DNA of 64,000 nt from assembly GCA_965215265.1 (NCBI GenBank), contig OZ244048.1, forward strand, positions 2,464,001-2,528,000. Direction: 5' to 3'. A program made the translations under genes and the position numbers. Below the pieces are notes generated by a model. That model did not search any database and was not told where the DNA came from. It saw only the letters and a list, made by a program, of their open reading frames with translations. This DNA comes from Candidatus Poribacteria bacterium. GTDB lineage: Bacteria > Poribacteria > WGA-4E > WGA-3G. Below, piece after piece: positions 13,952 to 50,523 of the stretch. Every line of letters begins with the position of its first letter. Within the stretch, counting starts at the first letter, position 1.

Positions 13952-13988
13952 CAGTTTTCTCTGGGATAGGCAACGAATTGCCGTTCCG

Positions 13989-25432: not shown

Positions 25433-25482
25433 GGTTGGGTATCTCCGTAGTTATCCGTCCGCACGAAGTTTAAACATGAAAA

Positions 25483-29548: not shown

Positions 29549-30580
29549 CTAGGGACGGAGGTCCCAGAGCAGCACGGTGTTATCATCACTCGCACTAGCG
29601 AGATACCTGCCATCAGGGCTGAACGCTATGCTACTGACAGCCCGCGTATGCCCGGCGAGAGTTTGGACGGGTTCGCCTGTGTTGACATCCCACAGACGAA
29701 CGGTGAAGGTGTCCCAACCTCCGCCACTAGCGAGATACTTGCCATCCGGACTGAACGCTACGCTTATGACATTCCGCGTATGCCCATTGAGAGTTTTGAG
29801 GGTATCGCCCGTGTTGACATCCCACAGACGAACGGGGTCGTCCCAACCTTCGCCGCTACTAGCGAGATACCTGCCATCAGGGCTGAACGCTACGCTCTTA
29901 ACCGGAAAAATATGCCCGTTGAGAGTTTTGAGGGTATCGCCCGTGTTGACATCCCACAGACGAACGGTGGTGTCATAACTCCCACTAGCGAGCGTGCGGC
30001 CATCTGAACTGAATGCTACGCTACTGACCCGACGCGTATGCGCGTTGAGAGTTTGGACGGTTTTGCCTGTCGCCACATCCCACAACCGAACGGTGCCGTC
30101 AAAATTTCCACTAGCGAGCGTGCGGCCATCTACGCTGAACGCTACGCTACTGACAGCGACATTGGGAATGCCGAACAACTTTAGGAGTGCGTGATACCAA
30201 TGCGCGTTGAGAGTTTGGATGGTTTTGCCTGTCGCCACATCCCACAGCCGAACGGTGCCGTCCGCACTCCCACTAGCGAGCGTGCGGCCATCTGGGCTGA
30301 ACGCTACGCTACTGACCCAATCCGTATGCCCTGTGAGTAAGTCGAGCGGCTCACCCGTCTCCGCCTCATTCAGCCAAATACCGATATCACTTGCCACTGC
30401 AAGCTGAGACCCATCCGGCGAATACCGCACTTCATTTACGCCACCTCTGCCGAGCCGGGCAATCGCACCCGCCGGTAAACCCAACAGCGTCTCCGCCGGA
30501 AACTGATCCGACGCAACTGGTAGGGAGGAACTTGACACGATAAGACTAAAAAAACAGAATAACGTTAAGTTCTTTTTCAT
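29549..30580 (-). CDS. Secreted WD40-repeat protein
   Basis: Signal peptide, LPAGAIARLGRG, about 7 repeats GH..VSSVAFSPDGRTLASGS.D.TVRLWD; RBS GGAGG before ATG 30580. Confidence 0.93.
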   Translation of the reverse strand: MKKNLTLFCFFSLIVSSSSLPVASDQFPAETLLGLPAGAIARLGRGGVNEVRYSPDGSQLAVASDIGIWLNEAETGEPLDLLTGHTDWVSSVAFSPDGRTLASGSADGTVRLWDVATGKTIQTLNAHWYHALLKLFGIPNVAVSSVAFSVDGRTLASGNFDGTVRLWDVATGKTVQTLNAHTRRVSSVAFSSDGRTLASGSYDTTVRLWDVNTGDTLKTLNGHIFPVKSVAFSPDGRYLASSGEGWDDPVRLWDVNTGDTLKTLNGHTRNVISVAFSPDGKYLASGGGWDTFTVRLWDVNTGEPVQTLAGHTRAVSSIAFSPDGRYLASASDDNTVLLWDLRP

Positions 30581-30594
30581 CTTAATACCTCCAT

Positions 30595-30912
30595 TCATTG
30601 TGCGATAAATTCATCACGTAACAGTTGGAAATATTTCGATTCCCGCATCAGTCCCTCCGGTATCAGGCGTTTGAAAAGTGACGCGTCATGCACAACACTC
30701 CCAAACACCGACAGCGCACACAGTAAATCCCCTTGTGTCCCCTCATCTAAACCCGTACCTGTTGTCGCGGTTATACATCTTTGAATCCAACCCGCCGAGG
30801 TCACCTCTACTGGCGGTTTCATCAACTGCGTGAACGGCAACAGTCCCGGCGTATCCGCAGCCAAAATAGATTCACCGTCTACTTCTATCAGGCGGATAAC
30901 CTTATACCGCAC
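30595..30912 (-). pseudogene. Fragment of an Rpn (recombination-promoting nuclease/putative transposase) family gene
   Basis: YKVIRLIEVDG..LLPFTQLMKPP...MRESKYFQ resembles the middle and C-terminal part of Rpn-like proteins; nuclease N-terminus and tail are missing. Confidence 0.6.
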
Positions 30913-32466: not shown

Positions 32467-35400
32467 TTATTCTTCCGATTTGAGCGTTGCCCAGCGTTCT
32501 GTGAGTTTCCCATCTGCACTCAGATGCCCTTTCAAGCGGGTTGTCTGCAGTGTCTGCTGCACACCTGCGTTGGAGACATCTTCAATGCGGTAGTAATACA
32601 CCACATTCGGTTTGGCAGACGTATCCGTCCAACTATAGTCGTTGCGTTCGCCTGTGGTGCCGGCCCCTGCAATCAACTCGGAGTTTATCTTTGTGAAGGT
32701 GCCGTTGCGCGCATCGCTCCGCAGCAGGTTGAATCCTGCGTTGTTCAACTCGGATTCGGTTGCCCAACTGATGACGATAGCGCCTTCTACGCGTTTCGCG
32801 GTGAAGGCAGAGAGCGCCACGGGCAGCGGGCCGCCGCCCCGATAGCCGGGCGTGCCTTCATCCTCGGCATTGCCGTAGAAGGTGTCGCGCTGCGCCTCGT
32901 TCAAAGAGGTGTTGGCGGCTAGCACCCAACCCGCTTCGGTGGTGCCGTCTTCGGCAACTGCGCCGGTGGCGCGGCTAGCGCTGCCGTAGCGGCGGATGAT
33001 GGAGCTGCGCCCGTCTTCAAGCATTGGCAGCTCCCAGGCAGGTTCTTCCCCTCGCCCGACATAGTTGCCAACCGTATCCACCACGGGCTTGACACCAGAG
33101 GCTTCTTTACCATATAACGTCAACTTGAAGGCGGTGGTGGCTAGCACCGGCGAACGCCGTTCCAAGTCCAGTTTATCGCGATAAGCGCTCTCGCGCCGCA
33201 GGTTGATGACACGTGCATCAGGGAAGTGGCCAGAGGTGCGCCCGGTGTCTGTCACGATGAGCAGCGTCTGGTTCGGGGGGATTATCTTACCGCCTACGAA
33301 TTTGAGCGTCACATCTGGGCGAACGGCGGTGTCGGTGGTGGCATCTTGTTGGATGCGGAGCGTCCAGTCGTTCAGATTCACCGCTTCGGTTAGAGAACTA
33401 TTGTGCAGCTCTATCCACTGCGGCAGCCGGTTGTCTGTGTCGAACATAATCTCGCTGATGGAGACTTGGCCCGCGGCGGATTTATCTTTCACTACACCGT
33501 TCTGATACCCGGGGGTACCGCCATACGCGTCTGCGTTCGGGGTATCGCGATCCCAGCCTATGCCGGTGAAACCGCGTTTGCTCCACGCGTTTTCCGCGAA
33601 GTTGTTCTCATTGTCGCGCTGATACACTGACCCTTCCTTGAACGCCTCATCTATATCCTTAAAGATGTCCTTGTCGGGATCCGGTGTCGCCTGCAGTGGC
33701 CAAACCTCCGTATTGTAGTTCTGAGAATCATGCGTCCCTACAAACGGAACGAAAACAGCGCCTGCCGCATCTTCTATGTGAATCGGCTTATTCTTTTGCT
33801 CTTTCTTATTCCGCAGCAGCAACAAGAACTTACCGTCGGCAGGAAGGTTGAGCCCGGATACAACTACGTATTGGTGCAACGCACCATGCTGCACCTCATC
33901 CGCATCGTCCACACCCAGATTGTTCCCACCAGCGAGAAAGTTTCCTTCGGGATTGCTGTTCGCAACGAGTAACACATCCCCGCCGGCAATGCTCTTATCA
34001 GGCAGCGTCACAAGCACCTTCTCGGTGCGCGCAGACGCATCGCCTGTCACAAGCGTGAACTCCCACTCTTTGATACTGACGGCGGCATCCGTGTCGTTTC
34101 GCAGCTCTATCCAATCTAGGCTGTCATCCGTGTGATTCCCTACTTCGTTGATGACAATCTTTCGACCTTCGAAACTCGTCCGGTCTCCGGCGGCGATACG
34201 CTGAGACGGGGTCGAACCAGGGGTGCCGATACGCTGCCCACCGAGGTTTATGCTCGGCGCAGAGGACGCTTGCCAGTTATCGGAACGGTTACCGTCTTCG
34301 ACTTCAGCCTTGGCAAAATCTATGCTCCTATACATCGAAACCAGAGACGCAGACGCGGCTTCATCAGTTGCCACGGTGCGCCCACCTCCACCGGGCACCT
34401 CCCAGTAGCCCAGCCCTAGATTGCTTATGCTATCTATCACCAGATACGGAGTCTCTCCTATTGTCACTTCCGCACGATTCACCAGGTCGCCTGTCGTAAA
34501 ATACAACGCCCAATCGTCCGCTACGGCAGTGGCGGCAACCGCTTTTACTGCATACAGCTCTAGCCACTGGCCAGACGACGACGGCGTTTGACTCGCATCT
34601 TCGCCCCACAACACTTCACTTATGACTACATCACCTTTCACGGCACCGCCGGTGGTTAGCTTCGGCGCTATCAATTCTATCGTCCCACCATTGCGGAAAA
34701 ATTCGCTCAAGTTACGAGTCAGGGTTTCTACAGGTGCAACGGCACTGGAGATACCATGCGTTGTGGATGAGCTTCCCTCTTGGGTCAATACCTCAAAACC
34801 GCCCGCTGCCAACGCTGAAAGCGTGAAGTAGTCCGCTTTCGCGAGCGTTTCCAAGTTGGGGAGGGTTGACAGATGCGAGATATCCGACACGGGCGAATCC
34901 GTAAAACCTACCACTGTCAATTTGGTGAGGGTTGACAGTGCCGAGATATCCGACACTCGCGCATTCCTGATATTCAGCGATATCAAGCTGGTGAGGGTTG
35001 ACAGCGGCGAGATATCCGACACTGGCGTATCACTGAGATCCAGCCCTATCAAGCTGGTGAGGGTTGACAGCGGCGAGATATCCTCTACTTGCGTATCACT
35101 GAGAGACAGCTCTAGCAAGTTGATGAGGCCTGACAGCGGCGAGATATCCTCTACTTGCGTACCCCTGAGATACAGCTCTAGCAAGTTAGTGAGGCCTGAC
35201 AGCGGCGAGATATCCAACACTTGCGTATCCCTGAGATTCAGCTTTACCAATTCGGTGAGGCCTGACAGTGCTGAGATATCCGACACTTGCGTATTCCTGA
35301 GCCACAGCCAATCCAATTTGATGAGGGTTGACAGATGCGAGATATCCGACACTGGCGTATTAGTGAGAAACAGCGTTGTCAAGCTGATGAGGCCTGACAG

Positions 35401-35906
35401 ATGCGAGATATCCTCTACTTGCGTATCACTGAGATACAGCTCTTCCAAGTTAGTGAGGCCTGACAGATGCGAGATATCCTCTACTTGCGTACTGTCGAGA
35501 TCCAGATATTGCAAGTTGGTGAGGGTTGACAGATGCGAGATATCCTCTACTTGCGTACTGTCGAGCTCCAGCTCTTCCAAGTTGGTGGCGTATTCAAGTC
35601 CTGTCAGATTGCTAACGTTTGATTCCCTTAGATCGAGGTATGTCAAGCGGAGCATATCTGCCTGGGTGACATCCGTCCCCGCGGAGATGTAGAGTGTCTC
35701 CTCTATTTCCGCAAGGAGCGCCGCATCCGGAATGTTCACTACCGGATTTTGGCTTACTGCCAGGGGGGCAATGAGTAACGAAAGCGTGATGCAAAATAGA
35801 ATGGAACAGGTTAAGGGGTGTTTGTAAACGGCATAACAAGCCCGGCGATTAATAATAGAACTAAAACACTTAACATATAGAGGGGGGGGTACATTCTTCT
35901 CTTCAT
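32467..35906 (-). CDS. Secreted LRR plus lamin-tail-domain surface protein; signal-peptide region out of frame at a C8 tract (ORF track 32467-35739)
   Basis: VNIPDAAL cap, about 11 LRRs of 22 aa, three ISE/INE...WIEL lamin-tail-like domains, PLPVALSAF...SELNNAGFN C-terminal domain; RBS plus ATG at 35906. Confidence 0.85.
34856..35590. repeat. 66-bp LRR-coding tandem repeats
   Basis: Recurring GACAG(C/A/T)..CGAGATATCC block at 66-bp period, several near-identical units. Confidence 0.9.
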
Positions 35907-36519: not shown

Positions 36520-36596
36520 ACCCGAAAAGTTTGATTTTCACCTTCACAGAGGAAAATCGGCTTGCTATTTGTTTTGAATTCTGCTATGATAAGGGC

Positions 36597-39500
36597 ATGC
36601 GAAACTTGAGACTGAACTCCAACAGTAAATCTGTGCGTGACTACTACACGACGCTGGAACGCTACGAACAGAGCCACATCGTTCACGAAGGTGCGGTGAG
36701 TATTCCGCTGGGGACGCTGCTGCAAACGTGTGCGCGACAGGTAGAGGCGGTATTTGTGCCGCAATATGCTATGCGTACGGAACGCGGAAACCGTATCGTG
36801 CTTGACGGTGCGATTCTTGATGAATACGAACTCCCTTTCGCTTATTGTGAAGCGAAAGACATGGCAGATGATCTGGAGCGCGAAATCATACGAAAGATTG
36901 ACGCGGGTTACCCGACATCTAATATCTTCTTCTACACGCCGCAGCGCGGTGTCCTCTATCAGAACGATCAGAGAGTGCTTGACGTAGACATGACGCAGCC
37001 TGACAGGCTCCTTGAGGCAGTGCAGCGTCTGTTTTCAGAGCCGTTTGCCGCGATTGAGAAGTGGCACGCCGCTGTTGCTGCATTCAAAGAGAGGGTCCCT
37101 GCGCTCGGGCGAGAACTCGCTCAACTCATCCGGCAACAGCACCAAACCAATACACGCTTCACCAGCGCTTTTGCTGATTTTTACCGGCAGTGCCGCGCAT
37201 CAATCAATCCGAATCTGTCTAAAGCCGCAGTGGAAGAGATGCTCATCCAACATCTGCTCACAGAACGCATTTTCCGCACCGTCTTTGATAATCCGGATTT
37301 TACACGCAGAAATATCATCGCCCGCGACATTGAAACCGTTATTGATGCACTCACGCACCACGCTTTCAGTCGAGACGGCTTCATGCGGCGTCTTGAGCCG
37401 TTCTATCGTGCGATTGAGCAAGCGGCGACGCTCTGCACGGATTTCTCGCAAAAACAACACTTTTTGAACACGGTTTACGAACAGTTCTTCCAAGGGTTCT
37501 CCATAGAAGTTGCGGATACGCATGGGATTGTCTATACGCCGCAACCGATAGTCGAGTTCATGGTGAAAAGTGTGGAATACCTCTTAGAAACCGAGTTCAA
37601 CCGTTCGCTTTCCGAGCCGGGTGTTCACATCATCGACCTGTTCGTTGGTACCGGTAACTTCATCGTGCGTCTGATGCAAGACATTGAAGGCACAATGTTG
37701 GAGGAGAAATACGGCGGGGAACTCCACTGCAACGAGTTGATGCTGTTGCCGTATTACATCTCCAGTTTGAACATAGAGCATGAATATTTCCGCCGGACGG
37801 GTGAATACCTGCCGTTTGAGGGCATCTGCCTTGTTGATACGTTTGAGTTGCTTGAATCAGAGCAGGCGCAACTCTTCACGCGTGAAAACACGGCCCGCGT
37901 TGAACGTCAGAAAGCGTCGGAGATGTTTGTAGTTCTCGGGAATCCGCCCTACAACGCTGGCCAGGTGAATGAGAACGATAACAACAAAAATCGGCAGTAT
38001 CCAGCGATGGATAAACGCATAGAGGAAACGTACGCGGCGGATTCCATGGCGCAGAACAAGAATAAGTTATATGATCCGTATGTGAAGGCAATTCGATGGG
38101 GGTTGGATAGGATAGGCGATGAAGGTATTGTCGCCTTGATAACGAACAATAGCTTCCTTGATGGCATCTCGTTCGATGGAATGCGGAAACATCTCGCGGC
38201 CGACTGCGATGCACTCTATGTTCTGGACTTGGGGGGCAATGCGAGGCGAGGCTTAAAGTGCTCTGACGCAAATGTCTTCGGAATCCAGGTCGGTGTCAGT
38301 ATCAACCTGTTTGTGAAGAAACAGCAAAAATCACCCGAGCCCTGCCGTATCTATTACCATCGCACTGATGAACTGTGGAATAGACAACGGAAGTTTGATT
38401 TTCTGAATGAACGCCAACATGCTGGGAATGTTGAGTGGCAAGCCATCGCCCCGGATGCCCGATACACTTGGCTCACGGAAGGACTCAACGCAGCGTTTGA
38501 TACCTTTATTCCTATCGGAACGCAGCAAGCAAAGAAAGCAAAAGAGGAGGCTGTGGATGTCATTTTCAAAACCTACAGCCTCGGTATTAGCACGAACCGC
38601 GATGCGTGGAGCCTCAACTTCAACGCCCAAGCGCTCTCTCAAAATATGCAGCGGATGATTGAGAACTACAACACGCAGGTTTTCAAGTGGCAGCATCAGA
38701 GCGCTCGAGGCACCAACGTTGATGATTTTGTGGAGGCTGATGCCACGAAAATTAAGTGGAGTTCCACGTTAAAACGGCATCTGAATAGCGGACATTTCGC
38801 TGAATTTAATGACTCAAAACTGCGGCGATGCCTCTACCGCCCTTTCACGAAGCGGGCGCTCTACTTTGATCGGATGCTGGTAGAGGGACCCCGGCTCTTT
38901 CCTTTCATATTTCCGACTCCTGAGACAGAAAAGGAAAACCAGGTAATTTGTGTAGCGGGTGTTGGAAATAGAAAAGGCTTTGGTTGTCTCGCAACAAATA
39001 TGATTCCTAATTTAGATGTGGCATTTGAAAAAACGCAATGCTTCCCTTTCTATACCTACGCCGAGGACGGCAGCAACCGCCGTGAAAACATCACGGAGTG
39101 GGCATTGGCAGCGTTCAGAACTCACTACGGCGAGGACACCATCAGCAAGTGGGACATCTTTCACTATACCTATGCACTCTTGCATCAGCCCGACTATCGC
39201 GAAACTTATCAGATGAATCTCAGGCGCGATTTACCTCACATCCCATTTGCACCAGATTTCTGGGCGTTCGTGAACATTGGCGCGCGGTTAGCAGAACTTC
39301 ACGTCAACTATGAAACGCAGCCCGAATCTGCAGGCTTGCAGTTTATTGAGACACCTAATGTCCAGCGGGATTGGCGCGTAGAGAAGATGAGATTCTCGAA
39401 AGAGAAGACGCAGCTACACTACAACGACTTCCTGACGATAGCCGGTATTCCGGATGAGGCGTTTGCGTATCGTTTAGGTGCGCGTAGTGCGTTGGAGTGG

Positions 39501-39662
39501 GTAGTGGATGGGTATCGTGTGAAGGTAGACAAACGGAGTGGCATTGTGAACGATCCGAACCGTGCGGATGTGCCGAAATATATTGTAGCATTAATCGGAC
39601 GGGTTGTGTCGGTAAGTTTAGAGACGGTGAAGCTTGTGGGGCAGCTGCCGCCGCTAGCATGA
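36597..39662 (+). CDS. Single-chain restriction-modification enzyme (Type IIG-like: nuclease, N6-MTase, Type ISP-like specificity domain)
   Basis: DG...EAKD nuclease motif, GIVYTPQPIV, DLFVGTGNF, GNPPY, YRPFTK, YRLGARSALEWVVD; no helicase motifs seen. Confidence 0.9.
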   Translation: MRNLRLNSNSKSVRDYYTTLERYEQSHIVHEGAVSIPLGTLLQTCARQVEAVFVPQYAMRTERGNRIVLDGAILDEYELPFAYCEAKDMADDLEREIIRKIDAGYPTSNIFFYTPQRGVLYQNDQRVLDVDMTQPDRLLEAVQRLFSEPFAAIEKWHAAVAAFKERVPALGRELAQLIRQQHQTNTRFTSAFADFYRQCRASINPNLSKAAVEEMLIQHLLTERIFRTVFDNPDFTRRNIIARDIETVIDALTHHAFSRDGFMRRLEPFYRAIEQAATLCTDFSQKQHFLNTVYEQFFQGFSIEVADTHGIVYTPQPIVEFMVKSVEYLLETEFNRSLSEPGVHIIDLFVGTGNFIVRLMQDIEGTMLEEKYGGELHCNELMLLPYYISSLNIEHEYFRRTGEYLPFEGICLVDTFELLESEQAQLFTRENTARVERQKASEMFVVLGNPPYNAGQVNENDNNKNRQYPAMDKRIEETYAADSMAQNKNKLYDPYVKAIRWGLDRIGDEGIVALITNNSFLDGISFDGMRKHLAADCDALYVLDLGGNARRGLKCSDANVFGIQVGVSINLFVKKQQKSPEPCRIYYHRTDELWNRQRKFDFLNERQHAGNVEWQAIAPDARYTWLTEGLNAAFDTFIPIGTQQAKKAKEEAVDVIFKTYSLGISTNRDAWSLNFNAQALSQNMQRMIENYNTQVFKWQHQSARGTNVDDFVEADATKIKWSSTLKRHLNSGHFAEFNDSKLRRCLYRPFTKRALYFDRMLVEGPRLFPFIFPTPETEKENQVICVAGVGNRKGFGCLATNMIPNLDVAFEKTQCFPFYTYAEDGSNRRENITEWALAAFRTHYGEDTISKWDIFHYTYALLHQPDYRETYQMNLRRDLPHIPFAPDFWAFVNIGARLAELHVNYETQPESAGLQFIETPNVQRDWRVEKMRFSKEKTQLHYNDFLTIAGIPDEAFAYRLGARSALEWVVDGYRVKVDKRSGIVNDPNRADVPKYIVALIGRVVSVSLETVKLVGQLPPLA

Positions 39663-39759: not shown

Positions 39760-41136
39760 ATGAAGCAAGCACGTGGAGATTTAACGCGAGGTAATCTTCT
39801 AAAGCACTTGTTAAGGCTTGCCGTTCCGTTAACGTTGAGCAATATTTTACAAGATGCGTTTAACATTGTGGATATGATTTTTGTAGGGAGATTAGGTTCG
39901 GCTTCTATTGCGGCGGTGGGGGTCAGCGGTAATCTGCTTAGACTGATCGGGGTTTTCGCGCTGGGTATATCTACGGGGAGCGGGATTCTGGTGTCGCAAT
40001 ACCTTGGTGCGGGTAATCGGGCTCAGGCGGAGCATGTGGCACTTCAGGCGATTCTGCTATCAATTTTTTGTTCAATATGCGTCACGCTCGTAGGCTATCC
40101 GTTGGCGGAACAAGGGTTGCTGTCGGTGCGCATGACGGACCCGGAGGTGCTTCAGTTCGGTACAACGTACATGCATATCATCCTGATAGGTATCAGCACA
40201 ATGTTTCTGTCAATGACACTGGGTTCTATCTTCCGTGCAGGTGGAGATGCGCTGACGCCGATGGTGGTGTTAATTTTTTCAACGGTGATCAACATTACGT
40301 TGGATCCGCTGTTGATTTTCGGTATCTGGAAATTTCCGAGGCTGGGTGTGGCGGGTTCTGCGTTGGCAACGTTGATCGGCCGTGCGCTGGGTGTGGTTGT
40401 GCTGTTCTACCTGTGCTGGAGTGGCCGTGCGCCGGTTTCGTTTCGAAACGTTCAGTACCGTGCGGATTTGGTAGAAATGCTTGACATTTTACGGTTAGGC
40501 GTTTATAGTTCTATGCAAGGCTTCTGGCGGCATTTATCGCGTCTCGGTTTTCTGTGGGTGATCGGTCCGTATGGTAAGCATGCGGTTGCGGCATATACCA
40601 TCTGCATGCGTCTCCGTATATTGGTAATGAATCCGGGTTTCGGTATCTCGCATGCGGTATCGCCGATAGTCGGGCAGAATTTAGGTGCGAACCAGATAGA
40701 ACGTGCTGAAAAAGCGACGCGGCTTGCCAACGTGCTGGGTGCGACGGTGATGACGCTGATAGGTGTGATGTTTCTCTTTTTTCCGGGCGTGTTTCTTCGG
40801 ATTTTCACGGATGACGTTCAAGCGATAGAGCTCGGTGCGGTTTACCTCCAGTTTTTATCGTTGACGTTCGGGTTTATCGCGTTCTCGTTGGTTTTAGGGC
40901 GTGCGCTCAACGGTGCGGGGGACACATTTTCTCCGATGGTGATTACCTTAGCGTCGCAAATCGGTGTTGGGTTGGGGCTCGTCATCCTATTTTCACGCTT
41001 CATGGCGCTCAACGGTGTTTGGCTCGGTATAGCGCTCTCAAATGTCGTACAAGGCCTCGCCATGTGGTTCTGGTACCGGACTGGGAAATGGAAGACAAAA
41101 AAAGTTGTCAAGGATAGGTCTGTCAAATCGGATTAA
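39760..41136 (+). CDS. MATE family efflux transporter
   Basis: DLTRG, NIVDMIFVGRLG, RAGGDALTP, NITLDPLLIFG, GQNLGA; about 12 TM. Confidence 0.95.
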   Translation: MKQARGDLTRGNLLKHLLRLAVPLTLSNILQDAFNIVDMIFVGRLGSASIAAVGVSGNLLRLIGVFALGISTGSGILVSQYLGAGNRAQAEHVALQAILLSIFCSICVTLVGYPLAEQGLLSVRMTDPEVLQFGTTYMHIILIGISTMFLSMTLGSIFRAGGDALTPMVVLIFSTVINITLDPLLIFGIWKFPRLGVAGSALATLIGRALGVVVLFYLCWSGRAPVSFRNVQYRADLVEMLDILRLGVYSSMQGFWRHLSRLGFLWVIGPYGKHAVAAYTICMRLRILVMNPGFGISHAVSPIVGQNLGANQIERAEKATRLANVLGATVMTLIGVMFLFFPGVFLRIFTDDVQAIELGAVYLQFLSLTFGFIAFSLVLGRALNGAGDTFSPMVITLASQIGVGLGLVILFSRFMALNGVWLGIALSNVVQGLAMWFWYRTGKWKTKKVVKDRSVKSD

Positions 41137-41166: not shown

Positions 41167-42033
41167 ATGATTGACAAAGGCTATGAAAACCCAGGATTAC
41201 TTATCTCGGCAGAGGAATTGAAAGCCAAGGTTCAAGCAACGCTTGCGTCGGACGCGCCTGATGCCGATGAACCGTTCTGCATTGTGGATGTTCGTCCGAC
41301 GTATGAATATGTGCGTGGGCATATTCCGGGGGCGTTGCATCTGGATCTGTTCGGGCTGAGCCTGATTGATACCCGCAAAGCGACGTTTGATGCGTTTATG
41401 TGGATGATAGGTTACCTCTTTCAACAACGGGGTATTGACCCGGATAAAACGATCATCTGGTATGAGGATATTTCAGGTACGCGTGCTTCCCGTGGGTTTT
41501 GGTTTTGTGAGTACTTTGGGCATGCGAAGACGCGTCTATTAGATGGTGGTTACAAAGCCTGGTTAGCGGCAGAGGGTCCTGTCAGTACGGCGGGTGTTGA
41601 ACCGCCCGAGGTGCCGCCGTTTCCGATTAACCCGCGACACGAGACGCACATGGATGCAGATGTCATCCGTGTTCTGTTAAATCGTGAGGATTTTGTGCCG
41701 CTGGATACGCGGACAGCCGATGAACACTACGGTAGAGTGGCCCGTGCGGCACGCGCAGGCGCGATTCCGGGTTCCATCCATATTGAATGGCTCGATAACC
41801 TTGACGAGACGGGTGCTTTTAAACCTGCTCAGGAACTGCGAGAGATGTACGAAGCCGTCGGTATTACGTCAGACAAACAGGTTATGTGCTACTGACAGGG
41901 TGGGTACCGCTCTTCCCAGAGTTATTTAGCGCTGCGGCTTTTGGGTTATAAAGCCAGCAACTATATCGGCTCATGGAAAGAGTGGGGTGACCGGCTGGAT
42001 TTGCCGGTTGAAGTGCCTGAGGCATCTGCCTAA
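41167..42033 (+). CDS. Two-domain sulfurtransferase (rhodanese/MST family), probable selenoprotein with Sec at UGA 41893-41895
   Basis: GHIPGA, LLDGG, GAIPGS; reading through TGA gives CY-U-QGGYRSS...YIGSWKEWG...PVE to TAA 42033 (288 aa). Confidence 0.9.
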
Positions 42034-42136
42034 ATTGCAGATGGAATTTGCAGGAAAAGATCCGGGGCTGGGATGTCTGTTATGGAAGCGTAGTTGAACA
42101 GTATGATGTATTTGTATAAGTAAGAAGCGAGAGTAC

Positions 42137-42185
42137 ATAACCCCTTTCTCTCTTTTCTCCCTGGATGTGTGAGAAAGGGGTTATG
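42137..42185. terminator. Hairpin between convergent sulfurtransferase and moeA genes
   Basis: CATAACCCCTTTCTC / GAGAAAGGGGTTATG 15-bp inverted repeat. Confidence 0.7.
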
Positions 42186-42212
42186 CTCATCCGTGGTTAA
42201 TTTGAGGTGCGC

Positions 42213-43412
42213 CTAAAAGAACTGTGCATCTACAATTTCGCCTGCCTGCATTCTGGCGCCGGCTGGAATGGTAATTAGCCCGTTGGCCAAGACGAGCGAA
42301 TGAAGGATGCCGGAGCCTTGGGGTCCGGTTGTTTTCGCTGTGTAGTTCCCCCCATGTTCTGTTAGAATGGCGCGCATATAGTTGACTCTTCCATCTCTGT
42401 TTACGATATTTTCTGCGAGGGCGGCTTTGAAGGTTGGCCGTAACAGTTGGGAGTGTCCGGCCATTTTGAGGAGTGCTGGACGCACGAACAGTTCGAAGAC
42501 CACGAGGGAAGAGACTGGATTGCCGGGCAATCCAAAGATCGGTTTTCCGTCAGCAATCCCGTAAGCTTGCGGTTTTCCGGGTTTCATAGCGACACGCCAA
42601 AAGTTAATCTTTCCCAATTTCTCCAACACATTTTTAACGATATCGTGCTCGCCGACTGAAACCCCGCCGCTGGTGATGAGTGCGTCGGCTTGCGCCAGGG
42701 CAGCCCGAAATGTCTGTTCTGTTTCTGCTTCGTCGTCACGGGCAATCCCGATATCTATCGGAATAGCCCCTGCTTCCTTGACTTGTGCATAAATTCCGTA
42801 GCGGTTGCTATCTCGGATTTTTCCGGGGGTGAGTTGCTCGCCGAGGGGTGTCAACTCGTCGCCGGTCGAAACGATTGCGACGGTAGGTTTTCGATGTACC
42901 GTTACCTTATTGCAATTGAGGGAGGCGAGCATAGAGATTTCTGGTGGGCGGAGCTGCTTTCCGGGTGCCATGACGCGTTCGCCTCGCTTCACGCTCTCTC
43001 CGGTGAATCGGACGTTTCGGTTTTCGTCAACATCCTCAAAAATGTTGACGGTATCGTTTTGTTGTTGTGTTACCTCTTGCATGACGACGGCATCAGCGCC
43101 GTGTGGCATCATTGCGCCTGTCATAATCCGTGCTGCTTGACCTGGCTGGACAGGTTTGGTGGGTGCATATCCGGCTGCGATTGTCTCCACGATGGTGAGT
43201 ATAACAGGATTATCTTTCGACGCGCCCTGCACATCTGAGGCATGGACAGCGTAGCCGTCCATCGCCGAATTGTCAAACGGCGGTATATCTTCAGCGGCAT
43301 AGAGTGCTTCGGCGAGGACATATCCAAAGCAGTTGAGGATATTGCGTTTTTCTGTTGATAAAACAGGAATGGTGTCTAGCATCTGTTGACGTGCGGCTTC
43401 AACACTTAGCAT
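42213..43412 (-). CDS. moeA: Molybdopterin molybdenumtransferase
   Basis: PPFDNSAMDGYAV, IMTGA, STGDEL, TSGGVSVG, MKPGKP, LPGNPVS. Confidence 0.97.
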   Translation of the reverse strand: MLSVEAARQQMLDTIPVLSTEKRNILNCFGYVLAEALYAAEDIPPFDNSAMDGYAVHASDVQGASKDNPVILTIVETIAAGYAPTKPVQPGQAARIMTGAMMPHGADAVVMQEVTQQQNDTVNIFEDVDENRNVRFTGESVKRGERVMAPGKQLRPPEISMLASLNCNKVTVHRKPTVAIVSTGDELTPLGEQLTPGKIRDSNRYGIYAQVKEAGAIPIDIGIARDDEAETEQTFRAALAQADALITSGGVSVGEHDIVKNVLEKLGKINFWRVAMKPGKPQAYGIADGKPIFGLPGNPVSSLVVFELFVRPALLKMAGHSQLLRPTFKAALAENIVNRDGRVNYMRAILTEHGGNYTAKTTGPQGSGILHSLVLANGLITIPAGARMQAGEIVDAQFF

Positions 43413-43513
43413 GATAATTTTTCTCCATTTCGTTTTGTATTGTTGCATATCATATAACATAAAGACGGTAACTGCAAGCAGTTATTTTGCTGCGGCTTGT
43501 CATAAAATTTTAT

Positions 43514-43542
43514 TTGACATTGATGCAATCATATCGTATAAT
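43514..43542 (+). promoter_or_regulatory. Consensus sigma70 promoter of the metal-uptake operon
   Basis: TTGACA-17 nt-TATAAT; spacer overlaps the imperfect palindrome ATGCAAT-cat-ATCGTAT. Confidence 0.85.
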
Positions 43543-43576
43543 ACTTAAAAAGTGTAGTTCACAAGTCAGTAAAATT

Positions 43577-43900
43577 ATGAAGAACGACAAAATTTTTAAG
43601 CTACTGATACTGATAGGCCTTTGTGGTTATGCGGTTGTGTTCGCTTTCGTCGCGTTAATGCATACCCATGAGCATCACGTGTGTTCTGATTCGGTTGAGG
43701 ATTGCACGGCGTGTTTCTATGATGTCCATCATATAGCGGAGGCGATTCCTCTCGTTGCATCTGTTGTGCGGGAATGTTGGATTGCAATCCAGCCCGGTTA
43801 TGATGCGATTTTCCTCTCCGTCAACCTTTCCTATAGCGCGCTCAGCCGGGCGCCGCCCTCTCCTCCTATTTATCAAAAAGCCGATGTTGGGCTAGTTTAA
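43577..43900 (+). CDS. DUF2946/CruR-like leader protein (TM, His, CxxC, RAPP)
   Basis: Hydrophobic N-terminus, HTHEHH, DCTAC, SRAPP near the C-terminus; first ORF before the TonB-dependent receptor operon. Confidence 0.75.
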   Translation: MKNDKIFKLLILIGLCGYAVVFAFVALMHTHEHHVCSDSVEDCTACFYDVHHIAEAIPLVASVVRECWIAIQPGYDAIFLSVNLSYSALSRAPPSPPIYQKADVGLV

Positions 43901-44163
43901 CAAATCGGCTACCCCTATACGTATATCTTTTGAAAAATCCATAGTTCATTCGCGAATTATTTACCGTTTATCGCTGTAAGACTATGGTTTACTGTCTGCG
44001 TGCCTAATTCTTTACGCGCCGAGTTCTTCGTGCCATAATTATAACACGAGTGCACAGATTTGAACGGGAGGTCTTCGCGCAATTGTCATGAATTAGACTT
44101 TATTTTAACGCGGATTGAACGCTAAGCTAGAAGAATACCGATGAATAGATAAAATTGGAGGAT

Positions 44164-44808
44164 ATGATGTTTAAGCAATTCCGTAAGTGCGGTGGCGCAC
44201 ATTTTTCAACTTTTCAAGTAACTTTACTCAGTTTTGCCGTAGTGCTGCTCCTTTTTGGATGTGGTGAAGATGATAACCCAATTGTGGACGAGCATGAGCA
44301 CGAGCACGAAGAAGCGCCTTTCCACGCAGATGCTGATGGGTTTTTGCTAAAAGTGGATGGCGCGGAAGTTTATAGACAATTCCAAGGCACCGCAACCGGC
44401 GGGCTCACCGTTGGTGTCGGCGAAGAAGTCGAGGTTCACGTTAGATTCCTTAGTCCGAACGGGGATGAATTCCTGCCTAGTGGGACAGAGGAACACGATG
44501 AACATGAACACGCCGAGCATGGAGAAGAACCGTTTTTCCTTAATTTAACCGGTTACGATATCGCGATTGCTGATATCCATCTTCATGAAGAACATGAAGA
44601 ACATGAAGAACATGAAGAACATGAAGAACATGAAGAACATGAAGAACATGAAGAACATGAAGATGAGCACCACGATGAAGCCGGTGAAAAGTGGGTGTTT
44701 GAAGTCGTTGGCGTGAAGGCCGGCAAAACCGACATCAAGCTGCAACTATTTCATGGTGACCACGCTGATTTTACCGCGGCCCTCTTGATTCCTGTGACGG
44801 TTCAATAG
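44164..44808 (+). CDS. His/Glu-rich metal-binding lipoprotein
   Basis: Lipobox LLFGC, HEHEHE, (HEE)8, LFHGDHADF; RBS GGAGGA. Confidence 0.8.
   Translation: MMFKQFRKCGGAHFSTFQVTLLSFAVVLLLFGCGEDDNPIVDEHEHEHEEAPFHADADGFLLKVDGAEVYRQFQGTATGGLTVGVGEEVEVHVRFLSPNGDEFLPSGTEEHDEHEHAEHGEEPFFLNLTGYDIAIADIHLHEEHEEHEEHEEHEEHEEHEEHEEHEDEHHDEAGEKWVFEVVGVKAGKTDIKLQLFHGDHADFTAALLIPVTVQ
44584..44664 (+). repeat. 9-bp coding tandem repeat (CATGAAGAA)8 plus 1 variant
   Basis: Directly visible; encodes HEE repeats. Confidence 0.98.
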
Positions 44809-44859: not shown

Positions 44860-47172
44860 ATGAGTAGGGTATCGATGCTTTTACGGAATACTGACGGATT
44901 AACTTGCTGTTCGAGAACGTGCGCGAAAAAGTGGTTACTCGCGTTTGGCACGGCGTGTCTGTTCTGTACCGTCAAGTATACCGCCTGCAGTGAGGTTAGA
45001 AGATTTCCGCTCCGCGGGCAGGTTATTGACGCGCAGCACCGTGTTCCTCTTGAGAGTACTGTCGTTAGTATCGTTATAAATGCATTCGACGATAGAGAGA
45101 ATAGAGATTCTGTTTCCACGCGTACAGTTCGTAGCGATGCGGGTGGGTGGTTTGACTTTCAAGGTGTTCCTGAAGGCAAGCAAAAACTTCGGATTGTCAA
45201 GGCGGACTATCATCCGTTTGAACAAGTGATTGATGTTGATAGTTCCACGGCTGAGCTGCAAGTCGTGCTGAAAAAAGTCGCCTTTCAACTAGAGGGCATT
45301 ACGGTGTATGGCTCAAGTCGTGGCCTACCGCAGCTTGATGCGACAACAGGCTTTGCACTTGATGAGGTTGCACTTCAGAAGCGCCTTGGAATGACTTTGG
45401 CCTCCACATTAACCAATGAGCTGGGTGTGTCCGAACGGACGTTGGGGCGTGCAGTCGCGCGTCCTGTCATCCGTGGGCTCGGTGGGAACAGGCTACTGAT
45501 TCTTGAAAATGGTGTTCGGACGGGCGATAAATCTGCGTCCAGTGCAGACCACGCTGTCGCCTTCGATCCGACTTCAGCTAAGAATGTTGAAATTACGCGC
45601 GGGCCGGCATCGCTCCTATACGGTTCGAGTACGCTTGGGGGGGTTGTGAACGTTCGAAGCAACAGCATATCAGCCGTGTTGCCGAAACATCCGAGCATGG
45701 ATTTGAGTTTCCAGAGTGAAACAGTCAATTCAGGTGTGATGGCGAATACGAGGGTTGCTGTTCCAGTCGGCGACTTTGCAGGAGTGATGGAATGGAACCG
45801 CCGGCTGGCTAAAGATACGCGTACGCCGCTGGGCATATTAGAGAACACAGCGGTCTCAAATATTAATTTTTCAACGGGAGCGTCCATAATTCAGGAGTGG
45901 GGCCATCTGGGGCTATCGGGTGGCAGTTACCGTTCGCATTACGGCATTCCCGGTTCTCCTGAGGGACATATCACCGGTGTGAACATCGTGCTGGATCGGC
46001 AGCGGTATGAGGGCCAATTGGAGTACGGTTTCAGTCGTGCGTGGCTGGATAAAATCAAGTTCCGGGGGGCATATACGCGTTACCAGCATCAAGAATTGGA
46101 GTCAAACGGCAGCATCGGTGTTGAATTCGGGGTGCTAACGTACAGCGTTTCAGCAATGGCGCATGTTTTTGACAATGCGATCATGGGGGTTTGGTGGCAG
46201 TACCGGGACCATGCCACAGGTGGATTTTATTGGACACCGCACACGCGCGAGTTTGCGTTGGCGGGATTCTATCTGAACCAACGCAATTTTGATAGGTTCA
46301 CCTTACAGGGTGCTATCCGTTATGACATAAGCCGCACCGCTCCGTTTTATCCGGGTACAGTCATACGTGCTGGAGCTGTAGAACAGCGTGATTTTAACGG
46401 TGTCTCCGGTGCGGTTTCCGGGATTTACCGTTGGAACGATCGGATAAGTGCTGGTGGCACGTTAATGAAGACGTTTCGTGCGCCGGGTATAGAGGAGCTC
46501 TTTTCGGACGGTCCGCATTTAGCTATCTATTCGTATGAAATCGGCAATGCGGCGTTACCAGCCGAGAACGGCTATGGGAGCGAACTGTTCGGGCGTTATT
46601 CAAGCGACAGGGTCAAGTTCAAATTGGCGCTGTTCCACAATCAGATAGAAAATTATCTTATTCCGACGAACACTGGCGAAAAAGATTGGGGAAGCGGTGC
46701 GGCGGGATGGTTGTGGATTTACCAGTACATGGGGCAGGACGTTGTGATGGATGGTGTGGAAATAGAGTTTCAAAGCGAGGTTCTGCCCCGTTTTCACGTC
46801 CAATTCGGTGTGAGTTACCTTAACGGCAGGATTACATCCGGTGCGCAAGCGAGAAAACCGTTGGAACGGATACCGCCTTTGAACGGCAAATTCGCTCTCC
46901 GTTACATCCGGGTGCCGTTTGAGGTCCATCTGACAACCCGGTTTTCAGCGAGTCAGACCCGCCTTGGCGAATTTGAGGAGCCGACAGACGGCTATCTTGT
47001 CTACGATGCCGGCTGTTACTTCAATTTACCGTGGTGGAAACTCGAGAATATAGTAGTTCTTGAGGTAGAGAACCTGTTGGATACGGCTTACCGCGAGCAT
47101 CTTTCTCGCATCAAATCGATTATGCCGGAGCCGGGGCGGAATGTCAAATTTTTGTATAAACTTAATTTTTAA
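44860..47172 (+). CDS. TonB-dependent receptor (metal uptake, ZnuD-like plug)
   Basis: N-terminal beta-sandwich, RPVIRGL, SADHAV, RGPASLLYGS, ELFSDGPHLA, YREHLSR, C-terminal Phe. Confidence 0.92.
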   Translation: MSRVSMLLRNTDGLTCCSRTCAKKWLLAFGTACLFCTVKYTACSEVRRFPLRGQVIDAQHRVPLESTVVSIVINAFDDRENRDSVSTRTVRSDAGGWFDFQGVPEGKQKLRIVKADYHPFEQVIDVDSSTAELQVVLKKVAFQLEGITVYGSSRGLPQLDATTGFALDEVALQKRLGMTLASTLTNELGVSERTLGRAVARPVIRGLGGNRLLILENGVRTGDKSASSADHAVAFDPTSAKNVEITRGPASLLYGSSTLGGVVNVRSNSISAVLPKHPSMDLSFQSETVNSGVMANTRVAVPVGDFAGVMEWNRRLAKDTRTPLGILENTAVSNINFSTGASIIQEWGHLGLSGGSYRSHYGIPGSPEGHITGVNIVLDRQRYEGQLEYGFSRAWLDKIKFRGAYTRYQHQELESNGSIGVEFGVLTYSVSAMAHVFDNAIMGVWWQYRDHATGGFYWTPHTREFALAGFYLNQRNFDRFTLQGAIRYDISRTAPFYPGTVIRAGAVEQRDFNGVSGAVSGIYRWNDRISAGGTLMKTFRAPGIEELFSDGPHLAIYSYEIGNAALPAENGYGSELFGRYSSDRVKFKLALFHNQIENYLIPTNTGEKDWGSGAAGWLWIYQYMGQDVVMDGVEIEFQSEVLPRFHVQFGVSYLNGRITSGAQARKPLERIPPLNGKFALRYIRVPFEVHLTTRFSASQTRLGEFEEPTDGYLVYDAGCYFNLPWWKLENIVVLEVENLLDTAYREHLSRIKSIMPEPGRNVKFLYKLNF

Positions 47173-47182
47173 TCCTTAATTT

Positions 47183-47230
47183 TGCAGTGTATAAATAGCG
47201 TGCTTTACAAGCGTGCTATTTATACATGCA
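47183..47230. terminator. Long hairpin between the receptor and merC-like genes
   Basis: TGTATAAATAGCGTGCTT / AAGCGTGCTATTTATACA inverted repeat with G-U pairs, directly before RBS TAGGAG. Confidence 0.6.
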
Positions 47231-47241
47231 TAGGAGTTAGT

Positions 47242-47637
47242 GTGAACAAACATTTTAATAGTGAAATTTTAGATAATACCGGCGCGTGTCTTTCTTTTGC
47301 GTGTGCCATTCATTGTCTTGCCATGCCGCTTTTGGTTGTTGCTTTACCACTTCTCGGACTCGGTTTCCTTGCGAGTGAACCAACTGAGCGGATATTGCTG
47401 CTCGGAGCGATTGTGCTCGCAGTTGGAAGCATCACTTGGGGAATTCAACACCATCGGCAATGGCGTGCCTTTCTCATCCTACTTGCAGCGATGACGTTTC
47501 TAGGCATCGCTAAAACCGTTGAGGTAGGCAGTTTTGAGGTAGTTTTTCACAGTTTAGGTGCTGTCCTGCTTGCAGCTGCGCATCTCTTAAATCGTTATTT
47601 GTGCCGGACATGCCCGGCCTGTGAAAAAGGAGAGTAA
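47242..47637 (+). CDS. MerC-domain membrane protein
   Basis: LDNTGACLSFACAIHCLAMP, HHRQW, AAHLLN, C-terminal CRTCPAC. Confidence 0.88.
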   Translation: MNKHFNSEILDNTGACLSFACAIHCLAMPLLVVALPLLGLGFLASEPTERILLLGAIVLAVGSITWGIQHHRQWRAFLILLAAMTFLGIAKTVEVGSFEVVFHSLGAVLLAAAHLLNRYLCRTCPACEKGE

Positions 47638-48596: not shown

Positions 48597-49259
48597 TCAA
48601 ATATCTTTTAGAGTGTTATTGATGCGGTGCGCGTTTTCGAAATCTGCGGGTGTATTCACATTGAAAAAAGAGAGGCCTTCTGCATCAAACGGTTGCCAAC
48701 GTTCAGGGGGTACTGTCCGCATCCGGACGCGGTGATAGAGTTCATGGACGCGTAGTTCGGATTCATTCAGCATTTTTTCAATTACACGGAGCCCCTGCTT
48801 AGAATAGACAGCGCATAAGGTTTGCAGCGTTCTCTTTTTTTGAATGCAGGTATACGGCACAACCGCATCATATTCGTCCAAAAGGGAGACGAGATACGTC
48901 AGCAGCTTCGGTTCTAAAAATGGCGTATCGCAAGCGACACAAAGTGCAGCGTCATACGAAGCATAGGTTAACCCTGTGTGGATTCCACCGAGTGCTCCTG
49001 CGTTGGGAATAATATCTATGTGTCGAGGTACGTCAAATTCAGTATATGCCTCAGGGCTATTGGTGATAAGCAGCAGTTCATCTGTCACGGTGCGCATGCG
49101 ATGGATAACATGTCCAATGAGAGTCTCGTCTCCGATGCGCATCAACGCCTTATTTTGTCCCATCCGTCTGCTGTTGCCACCGGCAAGGATAACCCCGGTG
49201 ACAGGTTTTTGTCGGTAGTAGCGTTCAGGACTCTCTGGTGTGAAAGCGTTTGTGCTCAT
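48597..49259 (-). CDS. mobA: Molybdenum cofactor guanylyltransferase
   Basis: ILAGGNSRRMGQNKA, GALGGI, ACDTP, FFNVNTP. Confidence 0.94.
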   Translation of the reverse strand: MSTNAFTPESPERYYRQKPVTGVILAGGNSRRMGQNKALMRIGDETLIGHVIHRMRTVTDELLLITNSPEAYTEFDVPRHIDIIPNAGALGGIHTGLTYASYDAALCVACDTPFLEPKLLTYLVSLLDEYDAVVPYTCIQKKRTLQTLCAVYSKQGLRVIEKMLNESELRVHELYHRVRMRTVPPERWQPFDAEGLSFFNVNTPADFENAHRINNTLKDI

Positions 49260-49338
49260 CGCGGCAGACTCCTTTTTTGATGATGGAAGCGTTTTGCATG
49301 TGCATATAGCATTCCGTCTGTGCGAATATTCCTTGCGG

Positions 49339-50523
49339 TTACTCGTCAGTGCCTTTTTGGCTGATACGTTCAATAACATCGACAATTAACTCGCCTACTT
49401 GCTGTAGACTTTCTACAGAGAGGAGTTCGCCTCGATCTTGTTTGGAGTGAACTTTTAAGGTGACGCTGCTTGCACCGCCCGCCGTTAACGTAACCGTTTC
49501 TAATCCACGGCTCGCAATCGGAATGCTATCCAATCCGACACCGACAGGAAGATACCTCTCTGTAATCTGGACACCGAGGGATGCTCCGGATGCTTGGAAC
49601 CAGGTTCTCAGCTTAGCGGTGGTGCAAACGGGTGGAATCCCGTAGCGTGTAACGAGATTCACTCTGTTTCCGATGCCGAGTCCGTCTAAGTTGATAATAT
49701 AGGTGCGATTGCGGTTATGTTCATCAGCATGCTTCTGTATATAGCGTAACGCTCCACACATGCCGTATTCTTCTGCCCCAGTCGCGAGAAAGGTCACAGG
49801 TGTCTTGTTCCCACGTGCTGTTACAGTGCGTGCGACTTCCAAGAGAACGCCAACCCCCGAAGCGTTGTCGAAACCACCGGGAGACTGGTTTTGGGTTAAA
49901 TTGATTTGTAACAGCAATAGACAAAAACTGGTAATGCCTGCAATAGCCCAGGCTATGGCATCAGGTAACCCAGCGAAACCGATGAGCTGAATTACCGTAG
50001 CGATTATTAAAAGAATAAGTCCAAAAATTGAGACACCGTAAGCGGCAGCACGGACGGCAATCGGCAAAACCTGCGATTTAGAGTCGTAGTGTGCTACTAA
50101 GATCACGGTGGGAATCTTGCTATCTTGTGTCTCGCCTGTCGTTGCGACAATATTCTCCGAGCAATGTTTTCTGCCAACCTCGTACAACCTCTCTGCCCAT
50201 TTCTGCCAACGCGTGAATATTATAGCTATAGCGAGCGCGAGTACGCAGGCGAGACATATAGGGAGAGGAAACTGTTCACCTAACCATGGGACAGAGATGA
50301 CGATCGGCGTGATAAAAGCACATAAGATACGGGGCAATACTTCGGCGGGGAATTTCGTAAAGTGGAAGCGTTCCCGCTGAAGGTGCAGTCCAAATTTTGT
50401 GAATTGCTGTATGATATATTCTTGTGCCTTTGCCTCGCCTTCGCTGCCGGCAAGTCTCGGTACAGCGAGATGCCTGATGTGATGGTATGCGCGTTTTGCG
50501 TTATAATTGTGGTTTGTGCTCAT
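49339..50523 (-). CDS. Membrane M28 family peptidase
   Basis: PRLAGS, AHYDSK, GGFDNASG, GAEEYG, INLD, VHS..D; TM insertions. Confidence 0.88.
   Translation of the reverse strand: MSTNHNYNAKRAYHHIRHLAVPRLAGSEGEAKAQEYIIQQFTKFGLHLQRERFHFTKFPAEVLPRILCAFITPIVISVPWLGEQFPLPICLACVLALAIAIIFTRWQKWAERLYEVGRKHCSENIVATTGETQDSKIPTVILVAHYDSKSQVLPIAVRAAAYGVSIFGLILLIIATVIQLIGFAGLPDAIAWAIAGITSFCLLLLQINLTQNQSPGGFDNASGVGVLLEVARTVTARGNKTPVTFLATGAEEYGMCGALRYIQKHADEHNRNRTYIINLDGLGIGNRVNLVTRYGIPPVCTTAKLRTWFQASGASLGVQITERYLPVGVGLDSIPIASRGLETVTLTAGGASSVTLKVHSKQDRGELLSVESLQQVGELIVDVIERISQKGTDE

Follow-up and report, generated by a model that had tools for sequence, protein, structure and literature searches.

The stretch of DNA analysed here, called the window in the following, comprises 64,000 nt of a Candidatus Poribacteria genome (GenBank assembly GCA_965215265.1, contig OZ244048.1, positions 2,464,001 to 2,528,000 of the forward strand), and all coordinates given below are positions within it. 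The window encodes a rhodanese-type sulfurtransferase whose reading frame contains a UGA codon exactly at the position of the catalytic cysteine (Cys). A first-pass annotation of the letters had proposed that this gene encodes a selenoprotein, i.e. that selenocysteine (Sec) is inserted at the UGA. The gene and the codon in question are:

41167..42033, plus strand: read-through rhodanese gene, encoding an RhdA/SseA-like sulfurtransferase with two domains and 288 amino acids (open reading frame, Pfam, AlphaFold2, Foldseek, phmmer)
41893..41895, plus strand: in-frame UGA, codon 243, in the motif U-Q-G-G-Y-R-S at the catalytic Cys position; putative Sec codon (homologue alignment)

The open reading frame from 41167 to 41895 on the plus strand comprises 242 amino acids and ends with GTT ATG TGC TAC TGA, i.e. 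...VMCY-TGA. It was already noted in the first-pass annotation that the frame runs on behind this TGA. Indeed 45 further codons follow up to a TAA at 42031-42033, and if TGA is translated as U a product of 288 amino acids with U243 is obtained. Two stretches of this read-through protein match the Pfam Rhodanese domain (PF00581, E-value 1.1e-32), as expected for a two-domain rhodanese. The best relative of known structure, identified by phmmer against the PDB, is RhdA from Azotobacter vinelandii (1E0C, E-value 2.1e-35). U243 is aligned with the Cys of its HCQTHHRS loop, which we take to be the catalytic residue. None of the NCBIfam models reached its cut-off; the best was the 3-mercaptopyruvate sulfurtransferase SseA equivalog NF008557 with 95.6 bits, for which 250 bits are demanded. 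It was therefore not assigned to the SseA orthologues.

The structure was predicted with AlphaFold2 from 24 sequences, which were the protein of the window, all 17 Cys-containing homologues introduced below, and read-through proteins hand-picked from six of the 80 related loci. The model comprises two alpha/beta domains (predicted local distance difference test 92.9, predicted template modelling score 0.92), and U243 is located between a strand (238-242) and a helix (244-258). In a Foldseek search this predicted model resembles the tandem rhodaneses 1UAR, 1E0C and 3HZU with template modelling (TM) scores of 0.76-0.84. Judging from the model, a product which ends at residue 242 would be devoid of the active-site loop as well as of the last helix-strand-helix of the catalytic domain. 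The top query-normalised TM score (0.85) was found for EanB, the anaerobic ergothioneine sulfurtransferase, which is a larger enzyme and for which the sequence match is weaker (E-value about 1e-17). The likeness of the predicted fold to EanB may give a hint at the acceptor substrate.

For the comparison at the DNA level the best 80 of 328 matches were used, all of which are records of Candidatus Poribacteria metagenome-assembled genomes (MAGs) or single cells; Sec forms at 60-67% identity were left out of this set. In all 80 loci the aligned codon is a TGA in frame. It is followed by 43-52 sense codons, the translations of which are 84.8-95.3% identical to the tail encoded in the window, while for the part upstream of the TGA the amino acid identity is lower (69.8-83.1%). 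Substitutions downstream of the UGA are mainly found at third codon positions, which indicates that the frame is under purifying selection. Two of the loci, L036 and L037, are identical gene copies in one MAG; the first copy is situated about 4 kb before a contig end, the second about 19 kb behind the start of a different contig. This pair is probably an assembly overlap and not a true duplication.

The nearest protein relatives were collected as 120 clusters, and those of them that bear names are Candidatus Poribacteria. The majority, 103 clusters, stop at the residue just before position 243. The remaining 17 are full length and contain the Cys of a CQGGYRS motif at the aligned position, so that the UGA is found opposite to a Cys in 17 of 17 full-length homologues. 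This agrees with the alignment to RhdA and bears out the earlier statement that the catalytic Cys is replaced by TGA. The close homologues carry TGA themselves and not the TGC or TGT which the first-pass annotation had regarded as the sign of a nonsense mutation. Because the TGA is present in 80 of 80 loci, the downstream frame is conserved and the full-length homologues contain Cys, the TGA at codon 243 is not a mutation. The position of the catalytic-loop Cys is held by a UGA codon, and the loop would begin with the residue expected of a rhodanese only if Sec or Cys is inserted at this codon. In public records the relatives bear the names 'rhodanese-like domain-containing protein', 'sulfurtransferase' or 'hypothetical protein' and comprise 232-244 amino acids, cut at the UGA. 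The truncation of the Sec-type relatives at this codon is a systematic annotation error.

TGA is also used as an ordinary stop in these genomes. It is the true stop of the rhodanese gene in six of the 80 loci and terminates seven of the 41 Pfam-supported genes of the window. The read-through is therefore context-dependent. In a maximum likelihood tree calculated from residues 1-242, a single branch (SH-aLRT, the approximate likelihood ratio support, 87) separates all of the 104 truncated (Sec-type) rows from the others. One change is enough to explain the distribution of the Sec and Cys states on that tree, compared to a mean of 16.2 changes if the labels are shuffled. The Sec form of the rhodanese is most likely common to the Poribacteria relatives.

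Within the remaining coding sequence downstream of the UGA the mRNA can fold into two consecutive hairpins, which are called H1 and H2 here. They are listed together with the spacer in front of them and with the hairpin that had been pointed out in the first-pass annotation:

41896..41906, plus strand: spacer, 11 nt that separate the UGA from the first H1 pair, without indels in 81 of 81 sequences (alignment A3 columns 13-23, folds)
41907..41985, plus strand: H1, long imperfect hairpin with a basal 8-bp helix in which 41907-41914 pair with 41978-41985 (minimum free energy folds, pair counts)
41989..42009, plus strand: H2, near-invariant 7-bp hairpin GACCGGCTGGATTTGCCGGTT with the 7-nt loop TGGATTT; candidate SelB-binding minihelix (folding, conservation)
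41897..41913, plus strand: hairpin of the first-pass annotation, 7 bp with a 3-nt loop; alternative fold which shares its 3' arm with H1 (pair counts; absent from the minimum free energy fold of the window)

H1 is 79 nt long in the window and in locus L001 and 82 nt long in the other 79 loci, and a linker of 3 nt separates it from H2. The minimum free energy folds agree on spacer, H1 and H2 for the window as well as for five of the six loci for which they were printed. The exception is L074, in which the 5' strand of the H1 base is paired locally. For the window the fold of 120 nt has an energy of -45.9 kcal/mol (z -2.38), and one out of 200 shuffled sequences was equally good. H2 alone reaches -12.3 kcal/mol (z -3.41), a value matched by none of 200 shuffles. 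A first short fold of 41880-41960 (z -0.84) was misleading, since it cut H1 in half.

Base pairs were counted on alignment A3, which consists of 81 rows with 77 distinct sequences. For the whole structure of H1 and H2, 93.8% of the cells are paired, in comparison to 33-48% if the partners are slid against each other. Changes on both sides of a pair were found in 37 cells versus 14.2 +/- 3.4 in shuffled alignments, and none of 500 shuffles reached 37. In the basal helix of H1 92.6% of the cells are paired. Its pair 27-102 is never broken and occurs as CG (63), UA (10) and UG (4), and it connects a synonymous position of an Arg codon with a synonymous position of a Glu codon 75 nt apart. Two-sided changes were also observed for the H1 pairs 37-90 and 45-84. 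H2 is paired in 99.6% of the cells and exhibits a single double change from C-G to U-A, in L001, at the cost of two amino-acid changes. A pseudoknot or kissing pairing of the H2 loop or of the spacer with the tip of H1 was dropped by eye, as the window is without the required bases.

The synonymous variation of the gene was determined from a codon alignment of the 81 genes. A column was used if it held 70 or more sequences, if one amino acid made up 90% or more of it, and if its degeneracy was 2 or higher, which left 187 columns. Normalised synonymous entropy averages 0.70 for the 149 columns upstream of the UGA and 0.435 for the 38 columns downstream of it (Mann-Whitney p 8e-7). Of all 7-column windows across the gene, the 12 with the lowest values are located without exception within codons 242-256 or 269-283, which correspond to the base of H1 and to H2. 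The stretch between these two regions is back at the baseline, with scores of 0.59-0.73 for codons 258-267, which form the H1 tip. The minimum of the whole gene is reached at codons 275-281, i.e. at H2, where none of the 81 sequences deviates from CGG, CTG and CCG, and where all of the 80 Asp codons found at position 275 are GAC. The RNA fold is conserved, and synonymous change is suppressed over the H1 base and H2.

The amino acids encoded there show a related pattern. The Sec forms are invariant at S250, Q251 and L277 (81 of 81 each) and nearly so at V281 (80 of 81), and the codons of these four residues supply paired bases of the H1 base or of H2. At the same positions the 17 Cys forms, which were compared as protein sequences, contain Ala (15), His (13), seven different residues, and Ile (13), respectively. 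Since the residues specific for the Sec forms supply paired bases, both the base of H1 and H2 would be traits of these forms.

How does this arrangement compare to a bacterial Sec insertion sequence (SECIS)? According to the rules of the bSECISearch model given in a passage of a recent review (PMC13188914), a loop of 3-9 nt, an upper stem of 4-16 bp, a G within the first two nucleotides of the loop, a distance of 16-37 nt separating UGA and loop, and a folding energy not above -7.5 kcal/mol are expected. In the part of a SelB structure paper that deals with the SECIS, a stem of 6-8 bp and a loop G about 20 nt from the UGA, near the mRNA entrance, are described. We enumerated the hairpins across the 135 nt after the UGA in all 81 sequences and scored them by four consensus rules. 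H2 is the sole hairpin class that follows the rules for loop, stem, G and energy throughout, i.e. in 81 of 81 sequences. In keeping with the consensus SECIS of the E. coli fdhF type, it combines a 7-bp stem and a 7-nt loop with a folding energy of -12.3 kcal/mol, and it has a G at loop position 2, followed by another G (GG at positions 2-3). For the tip of H1, at a spacing of 46-50 nt, the same rules hold in 28 of the 81 sequences; the window is one of them, with the loop UGGGUUAU and -9.6 kcal/mol. In the SECIS of E. coli the helix starts 11 nt past the UGA, and a folded helix at this distance is found here as well. In contrast to the consensus SECIS, the loop of H2 is located 100-103 nt from the UGA, and a hairpin of 79-82 nt is inserted between spacer and minihelix.

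Taken as a whole, the data make it likely that the gene encodes a two-domain rhodanese in which the catalytic Cys is replaced by Sec by means of the UGA at 41893-41895, which would be recoded with the help of the downstream RNA fold. The UGA is almost certainly translated, and it is very probable that the residue inserted is Sec. The full protein of 288 amino acids would be made only upon recoding of the UGA, which is most likely directed by a conserved mRNA structure in the remaining coding sequence, composed of the 11-nt spacer, H1, 3 nt, and H2. The chances that recoding is signalled by H1 and H2 together and that SelB binds at H2 appear to be about even. H2, and not the tip of H1, is the element that we infer to bind SelB, as a minihelix. 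H1 would then act as a closed bridge which starts 11 nt past the UGA, as is canonical, and by which H2 is brought near the mRNA entrance of the ribosome. The closing of H1 would shorten the route between the UGA and the loop of H2 to about 11 + 3 + 7 nt plus one helix end, which would be the canonical place of a minihelix. More tentatively, we suggest a natural 'bridged' bacterial SECIS, in which the minihelix H2 about 100 nt from the UGA is delivered by the closing hairpin H1 of 79-82 nt, an idea to which we give somewhat less than an even chance. Su, Li and Gladyshev reportedly found in 2005, with engineered distant SECIS elements in E. coli, that a SECIS may lie away from the UGA if it is spatially well placed. 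The present case would differ from those constructs in being natural and inside a coding region.

Several observations weigh against this interpretation. A hairpin that obeys all consensus rules for a SECIS was not found in the window and is present in only 19 of the 81 sequences. The spacing of H2 violates the limit of 16-37 nt by a wide margin, with 100 nt in the window and in L001 and 103 nt in 79 loci. An Rfam scan of the whole window at gathering thresholds yielded RNase P only, and an E-value scan of 41700-42200 returned three chance-level matches and no SECIS. The covariation is thin, as most pairs are invariant, and the structure used for the pair counts was derived from the same sequences on which it was tested. 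A phylogeny-aware test of independent pairs, based on a tree of the upstream part, had too few contrasts (sign test, median p 0.5-1). The rhodanese tree is the result of a quick search with midpoint rooting, and a direction of change from Cys to Sec is not claimed from it. Domains of SelA, SelB or SelD are absent from the 47 proteins of the 64-kb window that were scanned (12 + 35), and ARAGORN detected no tRNA gene in the window or in 60 of the 80 loci, the other 20 having been left out. Finally, there is no second selenoprotein gene among the clustered in-frame TGA candidates that could show whether an H2-like hairpin recurs. The window holds 37 such candidates, of which the 36 besides the rhodanese were judged from coordinates, not from homology. 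When 1302 candidates from all loci were clustered, only the rhodanese formed a cluster with 81 of 81 members, and the others look like shadow frames by eye. A search for H2-like hairpins in 1.56 Mb (window and 80 loci) gave nine loose matches, none of them with an H2-like stem; it did not include a check for an upstream in-frame TGA. In favour of Sec in this lineage, on the other hand, Poribacteria are mentioned in a passage of PMC13582414 among the phyla with Sec-type group 4 hydrogenases, and a further literature passage reports that the COGs of SelA and SelB co-occur in most bins of sponge symbionts.

The public records, which give the relatives as proteins of 232-244 amino acids, would also fit a pseudogene or a truncated gene, whether the TGA is due to a nonsense mutation or to an error of sequencing or whether a short product of 242 amino acids is made deliberately, and so would the lack of visible Sec machinery in the 64-kb window. 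This explanation is hardly credible, however, because the TGA is found in 81 independent assemblies, the 43-52 codons behind it are more conserved than those in front of it and are under codon-level constraint, and the short product would have no active-site loop. A different proposal concerns the residue which is inserted at the UGA. SelB together with a tRNA-ReC-like (SelC*) tRNA might decode the UGA as Cys, or near-cognate tRNAs might read it through, and the protein would then be an ordinary rhodanese with Cys or Trp, produced by way of a SECIS-like signal. According to a passage of PMC13582414, tRNA-ReC-like tRNAs decode UGA as Cys via SelB and a SECIS in several phyla. Poribacteria, however, are not named among the genomes with tRNA-ReC in the main-text passages of that paper. 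Moreover, a costly UGA is kept in 80 species-level genomes though one change would give TGC or TGT, which argues for a benefit of Sec, and with Trp as its catalytic residue the enzyme would be inactive. We therefore regard both of these ways of decoding as improbable.

If Sec is accepted, the main competing proposal concerns the site of SelB binding, which could be the apical loop of H1 in an elongated but otherwise ordinary SECIS, with the loop 46-50 nt from the UGA. H2 would then serve mRNA stability, pausing near the stop codon, or as the site of a regulator. This proposal takes advantage of the facts that H1 begins exactly 11 nt past the UGA, that it is the dominant fold, and that its tip complies with the loop, stem, G and energy rules in the 28 sequences mentioned above, among them the window. 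On the other hand, the consensus rules are failed in the other 53 of 81 sequences, the synonymous variability of the tip is at the baseline, and the tip contains a 3-nt indel and differing loop sequences. H2, with the strongest constraint of the gene, would be left without an explanation, and so would L277 and V281, which are specific for the Sec forms. Binding of SelB to the H1 tip thus seems rather unlikely to us. The hairpin suggested in the first-pass annotation as a possible lineage-specific SECIS, 1 nt past the UGA, does exist at 41897-41913 with 7 pairs and a 3-nt loop. Its pairs are intact in 97.6% of the cells over the 77 distinct sequences (slid controls 44-73%), and the synonymous invariance of TAC and TCT is compatible with it. 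The assignment as SECIS is not supported, however, and must be considered very improbable. Not a single pair is changed on both sides, and the freely varying third base of the Gly245 codon breaks a pair in 10 of 77 rows. Most loops lack a G within their first two nucleotides (consensus loop ATA), and the loop lies 8 nt past the UGA, which is outside of 16-37. The 3' arm is identical to the 5' strand of H1, where the pair 27-102 shows two-sided changes, and the hairpin is missing from the minimum free energy fold of the window. With the UGA in the A site it would sit within the mRNA channel of the ribosome.

Sec-containing rhodaneses, a predicted family, are known but uncommon, as the first-pass annotation had stated, and those of the COG2897/UxxG type have been predicted since 2005. 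A table on the Sargasso Sea lists a 'Rhodanese-related sulfurtransferase, COG2897' with 3 sequences as a new predicted selenoprotein family (PMC1088965), and the same family appears again in a table on the Global Ocean Sampling data (PMC2398784). Five rhodanese selenoprotein forms are distinguished in a table of the 2026 review, where form 4 is the rhodanese-related sulfurtransferase with PF00581 and UxxG (PMC13188914). The protein described here contains a PF00581 domain with U243-Q-G-G, i.e. U-x-x-G. It fits the description of form 4 and therefore belongs to this known predicted kind, with which it shares the Sec at the catalytic Cys position, a marine microbial origin, and the fact that all members are sequence predictions; the match was made by the published description. 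The tandem thiosulfate sulfurtransferases RhdA (1E0C), 1UAR, CysA2/CysA3 and SseA exhibit the same two-domain fold (TM 0.76-0.84), and the active loop of RhdA opens with C-Q where U-Q is found here. In contrast to CQTHHRS in RhdA, the loop reads UQGGYRS, with Sec for Cys and GGY for THH, and the identity to the RhdA type is about 29-30%. The predicted protein is thus a further member of a known, still unvalidated kind of selenoprotein, and the RNA architecture of H1 and H2 is its unusual part. In the literature searched on Poribacteria together with selenocysteine or selenoprotein, a COG2897/UxxG rhodanese is not reported as a conserved feature of this group.

If the proposal is true, a bridged SECIS would represent a new architectural class of bacterial Sec-recoding signals. 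Searches which are bound to 16-37 nt would miss selenoprotein genes whose active-site sequence cannot host a local SECIS. A long-range conserved RNA fold could stand in for sequence proximity, provided that our reading of H1 and H2 is right, and the distance rule of the tools would be too narrow. A conserved Poribacteria selenoprotein would have been mis-called across dozens of genomes. Judging from its active site, the enzyme most likely forms a Se-S intermediate instead of a Cys persulfide and hands the sulfane sulfur to an acceptor. Sulfur supply for the molybdenum cofactor, detoxification coupled to the neighbouring exporter, or selenium handling are candidate roles. The replacement of Cys by Sec at the nucleophile of a sulfurtransferase in sponge-associated Poribacteria would offer a tractable case for the contribution of selenium to persulfide chemistry.

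The rhodanese gene is flanked by two genes which are also found next to it in most of the 80 loci. The neighbour counts over these loci are minima, as some flanks are short.

39760..41136, plus strand: MatE-family efflux gene, 30 nt upstream of the rhodanese gene (Pfam MatE, E-value 1e-62; same arrangement in 79 of 80 loci)
42213..43460, minus strand: moeA, molybdopterin molybdotransferase, convergent with the rhodanese gene (Pfam MoeA_N, MoCF_biosynth, MoeA_C)

The MatE gene and the rhodanese gene likely form one transcription unit. A promoter-like site was not found in the gap between them, which is weak evidence. The NCBIfam model MoeA scored 430.9 bits on the moeA product, for a cut-off of 440. 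The convergent orientation of moeA is seen in at least 70 of the 80 loci, and a mobA-like gene is located at 48597-49385. The first-pass annotation had described both genes correctly, moeA as convergent and mobA as nearby. The gap of 179 nt between the rhodanese gene and moeA contains a perfect inverted repeat of 14 nt at 42137-42184 (arms ATAACCCCTTTCTC and its complement), which may be a two-way terminator. It is not listed by a consensus terminator scan, and the Rfam matches to it are at chance level only.

Further downstream of moeA, a gene for a TonB-dependent receptor is directly followed by one for a MerC-family membrane protein (44860-47637, plus strand); they are found in 36 and 26 of the 80 loci, respectively. 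Neither Pfam nor NCBIfam gave a match for the two open reading frames in front of the receptor gene (43487-43900 and 44155-44808). A Type ISP restriction-modification enzyme with coupler, N6 methylase and C-terminal specificity domains is encoded two genes upstream of the rhodanese gene (36531-39662, plus strand). Only four of the 80 loci contain it, which makes a variable insertion probable. The gene for a separate N6_N4 DNA methylase (24521-25432, minus strand) adjoins the gene of the bacterial class A RNase P RNA, which is full length (25481-25825, minus strand, 296 bits). A B12-dependent (class II) ribonucleotide reductase that carries a TSCPD domain is encoded at 25909-29061 on the minus strand.

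The first part of the window is occupied by a division and cell-wall (dcw) cluster on the minus strand (478-17329). It encodes an FtsQ-like POTRA protein, Mur ligases, MurG, FtsW and MraY as well as a D-Ala-D-Ala ligase, a penicillin-binding protein transpeptidase and the MraW methylase, and an alpha/beta hydrolase gene is inserted at 11572-12456. Large eukaryote-like repeat proteins are encoded at 18806-22875 (plus strand), 29549-30598 (minus strand) and 32467-35739 (minus strand). Their domains include LRR and cohesin, dockerin and FlgD-Ig, WD40, and LRR and lamin-tail.

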